DNA from: a phage
Strand: one strand, 5' to 3'
Assembly (NCBI GenBank): GCA_033580375.1
Contig: GCA_033580375.1_4527.1
DNA: 64,000 nucleotides
Part shown: one piece after another, positions 43,270-49,818 of the stretch
Layout of the letters: each line of letters starts with the position of its first letter
Numbering within the stretch: the first letter of the stretch is position 1
Program-made: the position numbers and the translations under genes
Notes under the pieces: generated by a model
What the model saw: the letters and a program-made list of their open reading frames with translations, nothing else
Told to the model about the DNA's origin: nothing
Databases searched by the model: none

Positions 43270-43818
43270 TTAACGAGCCCATTTGATGATTTCTGTAATC
43301 AAATCATTACGTTCGCTTGCATTAAATCCTATAACTTTGTTAGCACCATCATGATTAAGTAATTGATACGTTTGGATTTTGTTATGAATTGCAAACTCTT
43401 CAAAATGTGAAATGACTGTATTAAAACTGAGTGAAGACAAAGTAATAAGATCGTCTTCAAAACTTTCAGTCATTTCGTTACGTGTTAAAATAATTGTGAA
43501 CACGTCATGGTTTTGGCAAAGACGAACATAATCCTGCTCATAAACATCAAGAACCGAGTCCGCATCTTGTCGAATACGTCCATAAACCCAGTTACTAATA
43601 TATCCACGGTCTAACAGATAAATCTTAGTAGGGTCTAAATAATTCAACATCGTTTCGAAACAACCAACTTCATTTCGAGACTTAACATCGAAACGTCCAT
43701 CAACTGTTCGTTTAGGGAAATCAATCTTTACATATCTTTCACTAATTTCCATTATGACATTAATGAAAGTTGTTTTGCCGGCATTATCTGGGCCATCTAC
43801 TAAAATAATTTTAGCCAT
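43270..43818 (-). CDS. P-loop kinase-like protein (thymidylate/dNMP-kinase fold); function unknown
   Basis: 182 aa; Walker A ILVDGPDNAGKTT near N-terminus, DRGY motif (LLDRGYISNWVYG) like the DRY/DRX motif of nucleoside monophosphate kinases. Occupies the slot of T4 beta-gt. Confidence 0.5.
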   Translation of the reverse strand: MAKIILVDGPDNAGKTTFINVIMEISERYVKIDFPKRTVDGRFDVKSRNEVGCFETMLNYLDPTKIYLLDRGYISNWVYGRIRQDADSVLDVYEQDYVRLCQNHDVFTIILTRNEMTESFEDDLITLSSLSFNTVISHFEEFAIHNKIQTYQLLNHDGANKVIGFNASERNDLITEIIKWAR

Positions 43819-43819
43819 T

Positions 43820-44716
43820 TTATTCCTCGATTACGACATCTTCGTATTTAGGTATATTATACGGCGAAGAAATTAAAGCATTAAAGTAGATGAACTCACC
43901 AAGACCTGGATGGAATACTTCTTCAGGATTTTCGAAATATTGAATCTTCGGACGTCCTTTAAGAATTTGATAGTACTCAGTTTTAGTTGGTTTAAAAATT
44001 CGAATCAGCGCTTCTTCAGGATACTTATTTCTGTCGAAGCTATTATTTGGATCGGTTATATAAAGTGGTTGTCCTAATTGAATTGCACATTCAACCACTT
44101 GTTCAAAATGATAACACGGATCACTAATTCGAAATGGATGAAAAATACCATCTACATGAATAGGAGCCAAATCACCTACAAGACGCTGCATGATGGAAGG
44201 ACGTATAACTTTCTGCGTTACGATAATCTTATTATCTGCGCCAGCGTTAACCAGCACTTCTTTTTGACGTTCATTCAACACAGTAGTTTGAAGTGAACGA
44301 TTAACCGACAACATGTCGGTTTTTAAGAATTCGTCAATATAAAAACGTGGTTTATTAGGGTCTGCAGTGATATTGAAATTGAATTCTACATCAAAAGCGC
44401 CGTCATATCCAGTGATATCTGTGATTAGAAAATCACAATCATAATAAGCAATTAATGAATCAACAACAAATTCATTTTCAGACCAGAAATATTTACGAGT
44501 GTTATACGCGTTATCTTTATACCATAATGGAACAAACTTAAATTCTGGGAAAAGACGTTCACATTCTTTAATATCAGATGCATTACGTGGATATGTAATC
44601 ACATCACCCGGATTAGCACGGTGCAAATGAAGTTGGAAGTTGCCATCCTTAAGGATAGCATACTGTCCAGTTTCATAAGACCGCATACTCAAGATTGGTA
44701 CGCGGAAAATAGCCAT
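43820..44716 (-). CDS. hypothetical protein (298 aa) in beta-gt position; no motif recognised
   Basis: Track ORF tightly packed (2-nt gap to next gene, 1-nt overlap with gene 42 homolog). Confidence 0.4.
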   Translation of the reverse strand: MAIFRVPILSMRSYETGQYAILKDGNFQLHLHRANPGDVITYPRNASDIKECERLFPEFKFVPLWYKDNAYNTRKYFWSENEFVVDSLIAYYDCDFLITDITGYDGAFDVEFNFNITADPNKPRFYIDEFLKTDMLSVNRSLQTTVLNERQKEVLVNAGADNKIIVTQKVIRPSIMQRLVGDLAPIHVDGIFHPFRISDPCYHFEQVVECAIQLGQPLYITDPNNSFDRNKYPEEALIRIFKPTKTEYYQILKGRPKIQYFENPEEVFHPGLGEFIYFNALISSPYNIPKYEDVVIEE

Positions 44717-45432
44717 TAGTCAAGGAATCCTTTAACATAATCAAAATCACGTTCAAACACATGGGCACTTACCATGGTATGAGTATAATCACCAACTTCT
44801 ACACCGCATTCGTTAGCGATATAATGAAGTAATTTTCCTTGGAGATAAAAATCCAACTGCATAACAACAGCACAGTTCTGAGAACGCATATGACAGTGGG
44901 TATAAAGCTTACCATCACGAATATAATAAGTCACTGAGTCAGTACATGGATATTCAAGTGTTTCATCTGAATCAAGCAAAGCCTGATCAGAACTTTCTAG
45001 AATTTGGAACACAACTCTTCGAGAGTTAGGTTTTTCTTTAAGTTCTTTTAGAAGAGCTGGTAATTGAGCCGCAATGCGAGGACCATAGAAAGTGTTGAAG
45101 TTTGCAGGCAAAGCATCTGATTTTGGTTTAGAAATAAATTTAGCGACATTAGGATATGCCTTAAACGCTTCTTCTGCATCAGTACCACCGGAAATCATAA
45201 ACTTCCAGAAGTCTTCGGCATATTCATAAGATATGCGATTAATACGTGGGTCGGTCATTTTGAATGATGATGGAGTGTCAACAACTACTGTCATAGACCC
45301 AATTTCATTACAACGTCCAATACGAGAATCAGTTACGAATTCTGGGTTTTCTAAAATTTCACGATTGACTGCTTTAAATGCGGTTTGAAAATCTGCGGCT
45401 TTGATATATTTCATTGTGTTATGTTTTCCCAT
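44716..45432 (-). CDS. 42: dCMP hydroxymethylase (thymidylate-synthase superfamily), gene 42 homolog
   Basis: 238 aa; catalytic region YPCTDSVTYYIRDGKL...HMRSQN...MQLDFY aligns by eye with T4 gp42 FMCTNTVQYLIRDKKI...NMRSND...FRNDY (Cys148 nucleophile, Asp179 equivalent retained). Confidence 0.7.
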   Translation of the reverse strand: MGKHNTMKYIKAADFQTAFKAVNREILENPEFVTDSRIGRCNEIGSMTVVVDTPSSFKMTDPRINRISYEYAEDFWKFMISGGTDAEEAFKAYPNVAKFISKPKSDALPANFNTFYGPRIAAQLPALLKELKEKPNSRRVVFQILESSDQALLDSDETLEYPCTDSVTYYIRDGKLYTHCHMRSQNCAVVMQLDFYLQGKLLHYIANECGVEVGDYTHTMVSAHVFERDFDYVKGFLD

Positions 45433-45557
45433 GTTTACCTCAATACAATTTATTATATACTCAATTCGTAAAGCTTATTTGAATTTCTTGGCAATGTTGA
45501 TATAACGTAAAGCTTCAGCATCGATACTTCCAAGAACACTATGAAGAAATGCATCAG

Positions 45558-45713
45558 CTTAGTATTCTAATTGAACAGGTTCTTTAATCACTTTAGCCGC
45601 TTTGGTTTCAAACAGGCCCATAAGGGCCTTTTTAAGAATTTGTTCGTTAGTGTTCAGTTTCATAGTCAAAATCTCTTCATTAAGTTTATAATTAAAAGCT
45701 TTTCTAGAAATCA
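45558..45713 (-). CDS. small ORF (~51 aa) translationally coupled (ATGA) to the U32 gene; coordinates approximate
   Basis: Hand translation MISRKAFNYKLNEEILTMKLNTNEQILKKALMGLFETKAAKVIKEPVQLEY; start overlaps U32 stop. Confidence 0.25.
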
Positions 45714-46871
45714 TTCCGGGTACCTCAAAGCGTCATCAGAGTTAGTTATATCAATAATAGATATGGAGTTTTCTGCTAACCCGTTTTTAGATAATTGACG
45801 TTTGTAATATCTTTCACAATATGTACACGTTGACCCACAGATTTCATTAGCACAATCGAAATCCGGATGTCTGAACCACCTTTTTTCTAAAAAGCCATCT
45901 AACAAAGAGGTTTCAATATTTACTGTATGTGAAAACTCAGTCTCATTTTCAAGAGTGAAAATAGTCTCTAAAGGCTTCCACAGTTCTAACAAATTACCTT
46001 CAAACTTTTCAGAAGCGTATGCTTCAAGAACTTTCAAAATGTAGTCTGTGCTACCTGTACGTCCTGAAACTTTGAATTGAGTGATACCAATATCATTATA
46101 AAGTTTCAAATCTTGAGGACGAACAAAACGAGTTCTCAGCCAGTTAAATGGGTCTGTATCACGAGCTTTAATGCAGTGTTGCATTGGATATCCATTTAAG
46201 GATTTAGCATCATCAGCGGTAACATCAGTACTATGGAAAATATAGCAAGAGTCACGATAACTACAATGTGTTGTATACCCTTTACCAGCATTAGAACAGA
46301 ACTCATTTACAAGAACTTCAAATATTATATTGTTCTTATTGCAAAACTCTGCTGCACGCTTCAGGAAAGAAACTGAACGGTTCTTATGAATTCCACAGCA
46401 GACCTTTTTGATATTATATTGGTCATGCAAGTATTTGATTTGAGTTACGGCATCAACATGTAGAATTGTTGAAACTTCAATCTCAATATCTTTATTGACT
46501 TCACGAACAATTTCCATAACAACAGGGTTAGCGATAGTAATACGCCATACACCTATTGACCAAAGATACTGAACATAATCCTGAATAGCTTTCTTCTTCC
46601 ACTCAACTAGTTCTCTTTTTGAACCAGGATTTATCGTGTTGAGTGTATAGTTAAAGCAAATACCTAATTCGTTACAACGTTTAACATAGTCTTCTAACAT
46701 TTTTTTGTCAACGTCAGGAAGCCTAAAATCAGGTCTGGCTGCTACAAAAGCCATTTCTCTTGTAGAGCCATATACTTCGTTTATCAAGCTATTAGGATAA
46801 GTTTTATTGAGCTCTACGATTTTATCAAGAAGAGCTAAATCAAAATTCGTTCCGATTTTAAAAGTATTCAT
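45711..46871 (-). CDS. Peptidase-U32-family protein (RlhA/TrhP/UbiU-like putative oxygen-independent hydroxylase)
   Basis: 386 aa; N-terminal TIM-barrel signature NEVYGS...FVAARPDF...ICFNYTLNTI (cf. U32 DAVY.G...NAR.F...YVTLNTL), central ITIANPVVMEIVRE...EIEVS and Cys cluster EFCSNAGKGYTTHCS, plus C-terminal CANEICGSTCTYC. Confidence 0.6.
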   Translation of the reverse strand: MNTFKIGTNFDLALLDKIVELNKTYPNSLINEVYGSTREMAFVAARPDFRLPDVDKKMLEDYVKRCNELGICFNYTLNTINPGSKRELVEWKKKAIQDYVQYLWSIGVWRITIANPVVMEIVREVNKDIEIEVSTILHVDAVTQIKYLHDQYNIKKVCCGIHKNRSVSFLKRAAEFCNKNNIIFEVLVNEFCSNAGKGYTTHCSYRDSCYIFHSTDVTADDAKSLNGYPMQHCIKARDTDPFNWLRTRFVRPQDLKLYNDIGITQFKVSGRTGSTDYILKVLEAYASEKFEGNLLELWKPLETIFTLENETEFSHTVNIETSLLDGFLEKRWFRHPDFDCANEICGSTCTYCERYYKRQLSKNGLAENSISIIDITNSDDALRYPE

Positions 46872-46929: not shown

Positions 46930-47331
46930 TTATAGATTCGGTTTATACGATTTAAATGTTTCGAATTCGCCTTTATTCATAAGAGCTTTGAATTCGTCAG
47001 GACGCATAGCTTTGTCGTCGATAATCCAATCATATACTGGTTTATGTGTTAGCAAATTATGGTACTTCAAACCAATGTTTTCCAAGTTCTGAATCAGACT
47101 TGGGAGAATGTCAATTGCTATACGACCAGGACCTACTGACTTCATACCACGAGCAGTGTAAAGCGTTATGGTATGCCCTGCATCATACAGGGCATTAATG
47201 GCGGTCACCATTTCGACGTCTGGTTTGAAGTTCGCGTAATCACGATTGTTATTCCATTCCGTGATGCAATCATCGACATCAAAACAAAGATTAAGCATGT
47301 TTTCTACACGGCGCATTAGATTCGTTCCCAT
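46930..47331 (-). CDS. HAD-superfamily phosphatase (KdsC-like sugar-phosphate phosphatase)
   Basis: 133 aa; HAD motif I FDVDDCIT, motif II LYTAR, motif IV YDWIIDD. Confidence 0.6.
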   Translation of the reverse strand: MGTNLMRRVENMLNLCFDVDDCITEWNNNRDYANFKPDVEMVTAINALYDAGHTITLYTARGMKSVGPGRIAIDILPSLIQNLENIGLKYHNLLTHKPVYDWIIDDKAMRPDEFKALMNKGEFETFKSYKPNL

Positions 47332-49001
47332 TGATGAGTGATATCGCCACCGATTGGACGATAGGAAACACCAGTTTCTTTATCAGTTAGTACCCATTTA
47401 CCAGGATTTTTTGTAATCAGAGTAGCCGTTACAGGTTCTGCTACGTCATAACTAATAGAGCCGTCTTGAAGTACACGACCCATGTTACGTAATTGCTTAG
47501 TCAGAAGTTCCATACCTTTATAATATGCGGCTACCGCTTTAAGTGGATTATTCTTGAAATAACCACCTAATGCAATCCAGATAATCGCCACTGCCAAATG
47601 ATGATACTCGTTAAACGAACTCATCTTTCCATATTTGTAAACTAATGGATTGATGTTAATAGTCACATTACAAGTTGTTTCGTCAATAGTAAACTGTCCC
47701 CAGGTCGGATTAGCATTGAATTCATCATAACCTGAAACAGCATAAAGCACTTTAGCTTCATCGTACAATTTTGGCCCGTAAATCTTGGTTTCACCAAAAT
47801 ATCCACGAGGGTCGATAAACTTGACTTCGCCGTTATCAGTAATCATAGTATTACTGAAGTTCGGGTCACCGTGAATAACAGAGTACTGTCCCTGAGAACG
47901 GTTATGATAACGAATAAGGTGTTCTAAAGCTTGTTTCAACATTGGCTTCAGACGTCCAATCTTAGTGTAGTTCACATGTGTGATTTTACCAAATGAATCA
48001 ATCAATGGTTGAATGCTTTCACAACGATCAATAACTTTCGTATAGAATTCTTTAGTGAAATCACGACGAACAGTTTCAGGACTTACAAAATAAATGTCTG
48101 TGCTGAATTTCAGTGCATCTAAAATTGCATCAACAATTTGTGGACGAGCAAGACTTGATTTGGATTTAATATATTCAAATGCTGGCTTACCTTTAATGCG
48201 TTCCATTTCAAAGTTATTTTCATTAACAGAAACTAACTGAGGAACTGAATCTGATTTTACTTTCAAATACCATGAAATCTCATCTTTTTGAAGAGCTCGT
48301 CCCTGTTCTGTTAATGCGAATTTAGTTACAGTTTCTTCACCAATTTCAACTGCATTAAAACTACGATTAAGTTCACGAACTTCATGAGCCTTTTCAAGTT
48401 TAGGCATATCACCTAAATCAATTAGATTCATAAGCTCTGATTTATTGAATGCACTGCCGTAAAGGAATTCTACAAAATCACGTCCTTTACAGTATTCGTG
48501 AATTTCCTCGTCAGTAGAACCCATGTAGAATTCCCAGTCTTTGAACTGATAAATTCCTACAACATTACCGCCTGTTGAACCTACGTTAGTGATATTTTCA
48601 CCATCGAAATTATATCGACATTCATCACCCTTAACATAGATTGCGTTAACATTCCAAGACCATGAACCAAAATCTGGAATAATATCACACCAGTTAACAA
48701 CTACGTTATGGCCGTCTAAATCTTTATGTAATTTAGCAAGAGCATAAGCAGAACCATACGCTTCATCAACTGTACGAATAGTCACATTGAACCCTTCTTG
48801 CTCACAATAAGCTCGAACAGTTTCAGCAAATTTTGAATGAACTACTACAATAATTTCATCTGCACCAAGGTCAGAATAAATTGTATACAAATTGCTCAGA
48901 ATAGTGTCTTGTTTATAGTTCACAAGAACTTTTGGAATATGGTGAGTAATTGGATATAAACGAGTTGCCAGTCCAGCACCAAGAATAACAGCTTTTTTCA
49001 T
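47316..49001 (-). CDS. Bifunctional sugar-1-phosphate nucleotidyltransferase (N-terminal) / sugar kinase (C-terminal, APH/ChoK-like)
   Basis: 561 aa; N-terminus KAVILGAGLATRLYPITHHIPKVLV matches the RmlA/GalU G-x-G-T-R-L signature; C-terminal HGDPNFSNTMITDNGEVKFIDPRGYFG resembles the catalytic loop of aminoglycoside/choline/anomeric-sugar kinases. Confidence 0.7.
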   Translation of the reverse strand: MKKAVILGAGLATRLYPITHHIPKVLVNYKQDTILSNLYTIYSDLGADEIIVVVHSKFAETVRAYCEQEGFNVTIRTVDEAYGSAYALAKLHKDLDGHNVVVNWCDIIPDFGSWSWNVNAIYVKGDECRYNFDGENITNVGSTGGNVVGIYQFKDWEFYMGSTDEEIHEYCKGRDFVEFLYGSAFNKSELMNLIDLGDMPKLEKAHEVRELNRSFNAVEIGEETVTKFALTEQGRALQKDEISWYLKVKSDSVPQLVSVNENNFEMERIKGKPAFEYIKSKSSLARPQIVDAILDALKFSTDIYFVSPETVRRDFTKEFYTKVIDRCESIQPLIDSFGKITHVNYTKIGRLKPMLKQALEHLIRYHNRSQGQYSVIHGDPNFSNTMITDNGEVKFIDPRGYFGETKIYGPKLYDEAKVLYAVSGYDEFNANPTWGQFTIDETTCNVTININPLVYKYGKMSSFNEYHHLAVAIIWIALGGYFKNNPLKAVAAYYKGMELLTKQLRNMGRVLQDGSISYDVAEPVTATLITKNPGKWVLTDKETGVSYRPIGGDITHQWERI

Positions 49002-49041: not shown

Positions 49042-49185
49042 TCTAGTTAAAGCATTCATACTTTGCTTGTAGTCCAATCATAATCCATCCAATTACAAGT
49101 GTTGGAATCATTACTGGAGCCGTTAAGCTCCAGTAGATAGTCATGACAAGCATCAATAGTAAAAGTCCTATTGTTATTGCTTTCA
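49042..49185 (-). CDS. small hydrophobic membrane peptide (~47 aa), ATGA-coupled to the SIS-domain gene; coordinates approximate
   Basis: Hand translation MKAITIGLLLLMLVMTIYWSLTAPVMIPTLVIGWIMIGLQAKYECFN. Confidence 0.3.
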
Positions 49186-49818
49186 TTGCTCGCCTCGTAA
49201 CATGGCACCTAGAGCACCGCCAGGGTGGAACTTAAGGAAATCATTAGAGGTAAATCCACGTTCAGACGAAAGGTTGATAGCAAACGTATCGATAAGCGCT
49301 AACAACAATGTAGTGGACATGGTCGGAGCTAAAGAGTTCTCGTCAACTTCTACCGCGATACCGGTACAGAACGTATAATCAAAAAGAGCTTCGTATTCTT
49401 GCGGAATGTCAGGGTTACAATGTAACAGAATCTGTTTAACCTGAGGACGAATCATACGAAGATGTTTAGCAACACCTATCATTTCTTCAGTCTTACCAGA
49501 ACGACTGATGTGAACTAATACATCATTAGGTGCAATAAATCCTGCGTCGCCATGAGAATAATGCCCAGTGTTCAAATACATGCTAGGAATACCGAGTGAA
49601 GCAAATGTCTCAGAAGCTTTAGTTGCAATATTAGCATTCTTACCAACACCTGTAATAATTACACGACTTTCATAATTACTCAGTCCAGGGCGTCGAAGAG
49701 TTTCAAGAATAGCATTATAACGAGCAGGGTTTTGACTAATTACTTTGGCCATAGCGGCCAAAGAAGAAGCTTGTTTTATGATTGCGTCAATAGCGATAGT
49801 AATAGGAGTAGTTTTCAT
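49183..49818 (-). CDS. SIS-domain sugar-phosphate isomerase (KpsF/GutQ/KdsD-like arabinose-5-phosphate isomerase, no CBS domains)
   Basis: 211 aa; SIS motifs VIITGVGKNANIATKASETFASLGIPS...HGD...DVLVHISRSGKTEEM and C-terminal HPGGALG. Confidence 0.7.
   Translation of the reverse strand: MKTTPITIAIDAIIKQASSLAAMAKVISQNPARYNAILETLRRPGLSNYESRVIITGVGKNANIATKASETFASLGIPSMYLNTGHYSHGDAGFIAPNDVLVHISRSGKTEEMIGVAKHLRMIRPQVKQILLHCNPDIPQEYEALFDYTFCTGIAVEVDENSLAPTMSTTLLLALIDTFAINLSSERGFTSNDFLKFHPGGALGAMLRGEQ

Follow-up and report, generated by a model that had tools for sequence, protein, structure and literature searches.

The gene 42 product (gp42; EC 2.1.2.8; NP_049659.1) of phage T4 is a dCMP hydroxymethylase of the thymidylate synthase (TS) fold, which uses methylene-tetrahydrofolate (methylene-THF) and water to place a CH2OH group at C5 of its substrate; dC is replaced before replication, and the DNA is glycosylated afterwards. 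In contrast, gp48 of phage RB69 uses a flavin and O2 to place a hydroxyl group at the same carbon (PMC13326640). Here we describe an open reading frame (ORF) at 44716..45432, on the minus strand of a 64,000-nucleotide stretch of phage DNA (GenBank assembly GCA_033580375.1, contig GCA_033580375.1_4527.1; the whole stretch is referred to as the window), whose 238-aa product had been presented in a preliminary description as a divergent homologue of T4 gp42. We predict, with high confidence, that this ORF encodes the dCMP 5-hydroxylase (5-hydroxy-dCMP synthase) of a Mosigvirus, an enzyme of the TS fold in which a flavin would take the place of folate.

The function of the RB69 protein was established by Lee et al. 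(NAR 2026; PMC13326640), who found that the DNA of RB69 and of Acinetobacter phage DLP3 carries mono- and poly-arabinosylated 5-hydroxycytosine, with the arabinose ether-linked straight to C5. The base fragment of RB69 has an m/z of 128.05, corresponding to 5-hydroxycytosine, where 5-hydroxymethylcytosine (hmC) would give 142.06 (PMC13326640). Expression of RB69 gp48 together with the phage deoxynucleoside monophosphate (dNMP) kinase in E. coli led to 5-hydroxy-dC in the DNA, whereas T4 gp42 in a parallel set-up led to 5-hydroxymethyl-dC, and the use of 18O2 made the gp48 product 2 Da heavier (PMC13326640). Once purified, gp48 is yellow in colour, with absorption peaks at 370 and 455 nm, and an FMN-like flavin is released from it (PMC13326640). 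Lee et al. further report that the phage dNMP kinase phosphorylates 5-hydroxy-dCMP, that arabinosylation takes place on DNA, and that RB69 is without both the alpha- and beta-glucosyltransferases of T4; for a flavin crystal structure and an in vitro reconstitution of the enzyme of phage HY126, they refer to He et al. (Nat Chem Biol 2026) (PMC13326640). The PDB entries of the HY126 protein, AfhB, include 9IQC, “Monooxygenase dependent on riboflavin with dCMP and FAD”, and 9IQU, “phage HY126 dCMP hydroxylase-AfhB with substrate dCMP”, both released on 2025-07-16.

Identity and assignment of the protein

The ORF listing gives a single ORF at 44716..45432, with an ATG start and a Shine-Dalgarno sequence, GAGG, 5 nt 5' of it. 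Its product is identical to RB69 gp48 (NP_861738.1, RB69p048; 100% amino-acid identity, equal length), and about 98–99% identical to HY126 AfhB (PDB 9IQC, 9IR2, 9IQU), with three substitutions seen in the alignment. In a phmmer search of the PDB sequences, 9IQC and 9IR2 were matched at E 4.5e-162 and 9IQU at E 9.7e-159, with T4 gp42 absent from the best 60 matches. An AlphaFold2 model of the protein (predicted local distance difference test score, pLDDT, 84.7) matches 9IQC with a TM of 0.94 and an rmsd (root mean square deviation) of 1.5 in the fold search, and 9IQU with a TM of 0.89; after the AfhB entries, the next structures are the CMP hydroxymethylase MilA (TM 0.82–0.85), followed by thymidylate synthases (TM 0.64–0.76).

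The genomic setting is that of an RB69-like coliphage (genus Mosigvirus), to which the region is 97–98% identical by Megablast, the window DNA being 94–97% identical to RB69. The ORF lies between uvsX and the DNA polymerase gene 43, in the slot held by gene 42 in T4, and no second TS-family gene was found elsewhere in the 64-kb window. The signature residues Glu160, Cys163, Asn186 and Asp194, the gene neighbourhood and the fold are all common to the window protein, RB69 gp48 and HY126 AfhB, with no functionally significant difference between them, and the window phage is another Mosigvirus isolate.

The assignment as a dCMP 5-hydroxylase is based on the published assays of the identical RB69 gp48 and on the HY126 AfhB structures. 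Several points weigh against it. The RB69 base was first described, by Thomas et al. in 2018, as arabinosyl-hmC, and the gene goes by dCMP hydroxymethylase or thymidylate synthase in many GenBank records. Binding of the flavin is loose, and the flavin is FMN (flavin mononucleotide)-like according to Lee et al. (PMC13326640), as against FAD (flavin adenine dinucleotide) or riboflavin in the PDB titles. The function proposed for the window protein rests on two data sources from 2025–26.

The enzyme has been described before, in structures made public in 2025 and in papers of 2026, and the present result is an annotation correction rather than a discovery, remarkable as this class of enzyme is. 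Across well over 100 Mosigvirus and related genomes, this one gene carries the labels dCMP hydroxymethylase, deoxycytidylate 5-hydroxymethyltransferase, thymidylate synthase and hypothetical protein, the first and third of these being in use in hundreds of T4-like phage genomes. The correct function bears on the predicted evasion of restriction and type IV defence by therapeutic Mosigvirus, and on the choice of enzymes for handling phage DNA, with the hydroxylase starting another DNA hypermodification, arabinosyl-5-hydroxycytosine and not arabinosyl-hydroxymethylcytosine.

Active-site residues and the folate-dependent alternatives

The protein belongs to the TS family, as the preliminary description had recognised from its likeness to T4 gp42 around the catalytic Cys: Pfam PF00303 (Thymidylat_synt; cut-off 24.3 bits) is matched at E 2.4e-15 with a score of 56.9 bits, over residues 122–235 only, and the motif quoted at the time, YPCTDSVTYYIRDGKL, corresponds to residues 161–176. 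Sequences were aligned by BLASTP against T4 gp42, by MAFFT with the gp42 proteins of T4, S16 and 44RR and E. coli ThyA (the sequence used being identical to K-12 thyA), and by hhalign against the same three gp42 proteins. The similarity to T4 gp42 amounts to 25% identity over 218 aa (BLASTP, E 7e-13), and the protein is 8 aa shorter (238 as against 246 aa), the latter as described earlier. An ungapped block of the BLASTP alignment pairs Cys163 with T4 Cys148 (E. coli C146), and Asp194, in MQLDFY, with T4 Asp179; MAFFT and hhalign agree on the latter pairing, which corresponds to E. coli Asn177. The Asp that had been placed by eye at the pyrimidine-specificity position thus stands in the proper alignment that had been called for, and cytosine specificity is borne out by the retention of Asp194, by the published substrate, dCMP, and by the presence of dCMP in the crystal complexes.

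An ordinary TS, or a dUMP-specific enzyme such as a dUMP hydroxymethylase, would be in keeping with the TS models being the best Pfam and NCBIfam matches, and with the numerous GenBank products named “thymidylate synthase”. However, none of the NCBIfam TS models comes near its curated cut-off (e.g. 68.5 as against 174.6), and the Pfam match covers the C-terminal half only. The pyrimidine-specificity position holds Asp and not Asn, the E. coli residues L143 and D169 are replaced by Glu and Asn, and both the dCMP of the crystal complexes and the published 5-hydroxy-dC product point away from dUMP, making a TS or dUMP enzyme barely conceivable. Compared with E. coli ThyA, the window protein shares the core fold, Cys146, Arg166-Ser167, the SRR phosphate-binding motif, and the equivalents of Tyr94 and His207; it differs in its low identity (19–22%), in the N177D, L143E and D169N replacements, in the absence of the 40 C-terminal residues, and in substrate and cofactor.

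A divergent T4-type dCMP hydroxymethylase, producing 5-hydroxymethyl-dCMP from 5,10-methylene-THF for later arabinosylation as in the 2018 model of RB69, was also considered. In its favour, the gene occupies the gene 42 position, several GenBank records are annotated accordingly, and gp42 shares with the window protein the catalytic Cys, the equivalent of Asp179 and acidity at the position of E. coli L143, as well as the TS fold and dCMP as substrate. The acidic residue is Glu160, equivalent to T4 D145. An acidic residue at the positions of both N177 and L143 is likewise found in MilA (PMC13326640), the closest non-orthologous structure (PDB 5JNH, 5B6D; 23–25% identity, full-length match at E 1.6e-11), which differs in being folate-dependent, in preferring the ribonucleotide CMP and in serving antibiotic biosynthesis in Streptomyces. 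The 25% identity to T4 gp42 nevertheless falls well below the 55–73% found among gp42 orthologues themselves. In a tblastn search of phage genomes, at least 60% identity was observed in 343 records (phages of Enterobacterales, Acinetobacter, Shewanella and Pseudomonas), followed by 38% for Tenacibaculum phage PTm1, 30–33% for the Rhizobium RL38J1 group and ~25% for true gp42, leaving a clear identity gap that sets the hydroxylase clade apart from the true gp42 proteins.

A further difference from these enzymes lies eight positions before the specificity Asp. Asn186 is aligned by MAFFT, BLASTP and hhalign with D169 of E. coli and D171 of T4, an Asp that we take to contact the pterin of folate; this Asp is kept in the folate-dependent members compared, with Asn in its place in the window protein. 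C163, R138, R139, R183 and S184 are unchanged in 12 aligned sequences including ThyA and gp42. The motifs E-x-P-C and R-S-x-N-x7-D occur in all of the best 120 homologues drawn from a search of 5.8 billion proteins, with R-S-x-D in none of them. Asn at the position of E. coli D169 has been proposed as diagnostic of 5-hydroxy-dCMP synthases, and was validated on nine further homologues including those of Thanatos and RL38J1 (PMC13326640); in the window protein it stands together with the other two replacements, N177D (Asp194) and L143E (Glu160). Further changes may lie in the N-terminal half, where MAFFT and hhalign place an invariant Phe75 on the catalytic Glu (E. coli E58, T4 E60) and pair V96-A97 with the folate-loop residues I-W (T4 W82, E. 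coli W80), and where an invariant segment, KPKSDxLPANFNTFYGPRI, takes the place of the Trp-containing folate loop of gp42. Since BLASTP aligns the N-terminal region differently, this point is only suggestive. Phe75 and residues 85–120, encoded at about 45073–45210 of the window, are possibly an adaptation to flavin binding. The KPKSDxLPANFNTFYGPRI segment is the least confident part of the AlphaFold2 model (pLDDT 52–71), and the dCMP-only crystal entry lists 17 fewer residues than the FAD complex (217 as against 234), from which it seems possible that the segment becomes ordered when the flavin binds.

A hydroxymethylase is further contradicted by the published chemistry, with the identical RB69 protein yielding 5-hydroxy-dC with 18O from O2 where T4 gp42 yields 5-hydroxymethyl-dC, and with a base fragment whose mass is that of 5-hydroxycytosine and not of hmC (PMC13326640). 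The PDB titles also speak of a flavin monooxygenase and a dCMP hydroxylase, and no beta-glucosyltransferase homologue is present in the window. Taken with the loss of the pterin-binding Asp, these observations render a hydroxymethylase highly improbable. Of the earlier assignment as a gene 42 homologue, the TS family and the gene 42 slot hold, and the dCMP hydroxymethylase function does not. The methylene-THF reaction it implied is contradicted by the origin of the oxygen in O2, by the flavin that co-purifies with the identical RB69 gp48, and by Asn186. A search for Asn at the specificity position, which had been put forward as a possible refutation, is unable to reveal the difference between a hydroxylase and a hydroxymethylase, and the methylene-THF assay suggested for this protein would be predicted to come out negative.

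Proposed reaction and the arabinosylation cluster

In the reaction that we propose for the dCMP 5-hydroxylase, the nucleotide half of TS chemistry would be retained. By analogy with TS and gp42, the thiolate of Cys163 would add to C6 of dCMP, while Asp194, as in other members of the TS family, would read the N3/N4 face of cytosine and protonate it. The activated C5 would then take an O2-derived oxygen by way of the reduced flavin, consistent with the published O2 origin and bound flavin; the species attacked by the C5 nucleophile would probably be a C4a-hydroperoxyflavin, in place of the folate iminium. Elimination of the Cys would restore aromaticity and free 5-hydroxy-dCMP. Such a reaction bears on how a folate enzyme may evolve into a flavin enzyme.

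Upstream of this step, the dCTPase gp56 would remove dCTP and feed dCMP to the hydroxylase, as published or proposed for RB69. Downstream, the phage dNMP kinase, followed by a nucleoside-diphosphate kinase that is presumably the host's, would bring the product to the triphosphate, to be inserted by the gp43 DNA polymerase in place of dC. After replication, gp46:47 and gp3 would attach arabinofuranose to the 5-OH by an ether bond from UDP-arabinose, a donor made by gp55, gp52:53 and gp51, with restriction-resistant DNA as the end product. All genes of the published RB69 pathway are found in the window, at 96–99% protein identity. They are listed below with their neighbours, with RB69 gene functions taken from PMC13326640.

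22553..23653, minus strand: beta-arabinosyltransferase 2 (RB69 gp3); 98.6% identical to RB69p003 over 366 aa, function from PMC13326640
34879..35400, minus strand: gp56 dCTPase; 96.5% identical to RB69p028, by annotation
43270..43818, minus strand: thymidylate-kinase-like nucleotide kinase (RB69 gp45); 97.8% identical to RB69p045, weak match to a dTMP-kinase P-loop
43820..44716, minus strand: arabinosyltransferase 1 (RB69 gp46:47); single 298-aa ORF, function from PMC13326640, Table 1
44716..45432, minus strand: predicted dCMP 5-hydroxylase (RB69 gp48); by ORF, PF00303, identity, fold and signature residues
45559..45714, minus strand: small ORF (RB69p049 homologue); ended early by an in-frame TAA
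45711..46871, minus strand: U32-family protein (RB69 gp50), 386 aa; PF01136, 99% identical to RB69p050
46930..47316, minus strand: HAD-type phosphatase (RB69 gp51, AfhF analogue); 96% identical to RB69p051, TIGR01689 at E 1.5e-13
47316..49001, minus strand: bifunctional sugar kinase / UDP-arabinose pyrophosphorylase (RB69 gp52:53, AfhE analogue); single 561-aa ORF
49183..49818, minus strand: arabinose-5-phosphate isomerase (RB69 gp55); KpsF/GutQ at E 9e-32, KdsD at E 4e-30, 97.6% identical to RB69p055

Two gene pairs of the RB69 reference each correspond to one undivided ORF here. RB69p047 corresponds to residues 1–180 and RB69p046 to residues 183–298 of the 298-aa ORF, both at 98% identity, and RB69p053 and RB69p052 both map to the 561-aa ORF at 99% identity, with an NTP_transferase domain in its N-terminal part and kinase-like matches in its C-terminal part. 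The splits of ORF046/047 and ORF052/053 in RB69 are stated to be sequencing errors (PMC13326640), a view that the uninterrupted ORFs of the window support. Arabinosyltransferase 1 has no Pfam or NCBIfam match. The phosphatase, which matches a capsule-biosynthesis phosphatase model (TIGR01689), is given the role of dephosphorylating arabinose 1,5-bisphosphate, and the assignment of gp45 as a nucleotide kinase is a structural one (PMC13326640). Elsewhere in the databases, “RNA polymerase binding protein” is at times the label of the arabinosyltransferase, and “phosphoheptose isomerase” that of the phosphatase. No homologue of the T4 beta-glucosyltransferase was detected in the window (best E 3), the alpha-glucosyltransferase not having been searched for.

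A one-base stop/start overlap, TAATG, joins the TAA of the hydroxylase gene to the ATG of the arabinosyltransferase 1 gene at 44716, and a second at 47316 joins the kinase/pyrophosphorylase gene to the phosphatase gene; these overlaps suggest translational coupling within the pathway.

The small ORF is of a type limited to Mosigviruses. At 45559–45561 it has TAA where RB69 and CAU_ECP01 have TAC (Tyr52), giving the translation ...VQLEY*ADAF... in place of the ...VQLEYYADAF... of RB69, and shortening the product from 79 to 51 aa; the full frame would reach 45475 (45475–45714). The in-frame TAA may reflect either a true nonsense mutation or an error of sequencing, with no match to the variant in a pattern scan of IMG/VR, and no phage record 100% identical over the region. 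The small ORF was also considered as a degenerate chorismate mutase and rejected, there being no Pfam or NCBIfam match, a BLASTP E of 6.9 against the mutase of phage Entb_45, and an hhalign probability of 0.1%.

The neighbouring U32 gene

O2-independent hydroxylation is known from the U32 proteins RlhA (ho5C2501 of 23S rRNA), TrhP (ho5U34 of tRNA) and UbiU/V, Fe-S hydroxylases that need prephenate, their oxygen donor, and each of which works beside an O2-dependent alternative. The window resembles the TrhO/TrhP and UbiIHF/UbiUV pairs of the host in having a flavin/O2 hydroxylase, as predicted above, beside a U32 gene, which lies two genes upstream of the hydroxylase gene with the small ORF between. 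The TrhO/TrhP, RlhA and UbiI-H-F/UbiU-V systems likewise act at C5 of a pyrimidine (ho5U, ho5C) or on an aromatic ring and pair an O2 with a U32/prephenate route; they differ in having no TS-fold enzyme, and the phage U32 protein is only distantly related to them. An O2-requiring enzyme would be an odd choice as the sole source of an essential base in gut phages, and the U32 gene offers a possible explanation. We therefore put forward, tentatively and as a reading that we hold to be rather doubtful, that the flavin/O2 enzyme is the aerobic half of a dual system, in which the U32 protein would hydroxylate dCMP, or a related deoxypyrimidine, at C5, independently of O2 and with a need for prephenate. 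This would extend, and not replace, the explanation of the ORF as a dCMP 5-hydroxylase. If true, the U32 route would enable phages of the gut to make DNA with 5-hydroxycytosine when oxygen is absent, and prephenate-dependent hydroxylation would extend to deoxynucleotide metabolism.

Membership of the U32 family is indicated by both profile (PF01136, E 7e-11, 42.2 bits against a cut-off of 22.4) and fold, the top PDB match being the U32 protein 5D88 (TMt 0.70). A phmmer search of the PDB sequences with the phage protein returned no match. Ten Cys residues are strictly conserved down to an identity of 48%, among them those of a C-terminal C-x4-C-x3-C-x2-C. Additionally, an AroQ chorismate mutase gene directly follows the U32 gene in four lineages, with Pfam CM_2 matched above threshold in each: Entb_45/CIP9 (Kanagawavirus; E 2.4e-10), Serratia phage 92A1 (4.6e-10), Shewanella phage Thanatos-2 (8e-8) and Proteus phage Pm5461 (Bragavirus; 3.4e-12). 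The chorismate mutase genes are located as follows.

Locus L009, 6158-6397: chorismate mutase gene
Locus L013, 2988-3245: chorismate mutase gene
Locus L014, 2734-2991: chorismate mutase gene
Locus L015, 2999-3385: chorismate mutase gene
Locus L021, 5783-6022: chorismate mutase gene

Residues R8, R25, K36, E49, S71 and Q75 are invariant among these mutases, with a spacing that is presumably that of the E. coli chorismate mutase's catalytic site. In Thanatos-2 the U32–chorismate mutase pair lies elsewhere in the cluster, the pair moving as a unit.

The distribution of the U32 gene is consistent with a role under anoxia. Homologues, none below 80% identity, were seen in 222 phage records, and only in phages of facultative anaerobes, the named hosts being Enterobacterales or Shewanella; none was found in the hydroxylase-carrying phages of Acinetobacter, Rhizobium and Tenacibaculum. 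In Acinetobacter phage Apostate, the phosphatase gene directly adjoins the hydroxylase gene.

Against such a dual system, the resemblance to the characterised U32 hydroxylases is slight. The hhalign probabilities range from 3 to 12% (11.6% for TrhP, 3.4% for UbiU), no tblastn match to those hydroxylases was obtained, and the UbiU model of NCBIfam, whose cut-off is 440, gives a score of 18.5 bits. The canonical Cys motif does not stay in register: C192 is the one residue to line up with a Cys of the E. coli proteins, and the segment G-x-L-C-x3-S-G-R-C is missing. Furthermore, no recognisable chorismate mutase is found in the Mosigviruses, including the present window. The sole published guess at the function of the U32 gene is “sugar or heterocycle reductase”, as which it is listed and not discussed (PMC13326640). 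In the searchable literature, whose coverage does not extend to He et al. 2026 and Mahler et al. 2025, no paper ties a U32 protein or a chorismate mutase to these phages.

Distant U32 homologues (48–58% identity) provide a further point in favour of the dual system, lying in deoxynucleotide-metabolism neighbourhoods of large metagenomic contigs, with no TS homologue near them on these contigs. These neighbourhoods may represent a separate nucleotide-modification system. Their genes include those for dCMP deaminase, thymidylate kinase, UDG, NT5C, dNK, nucleoside deoxyribosyltransferase and radical-SAM/SPASM proteins. Two such loci, L017 (7447-9086) and L018 (8001-14360), carry U32 homologues that are 48–55% identical, with one of the contigs reaching 466 kb.

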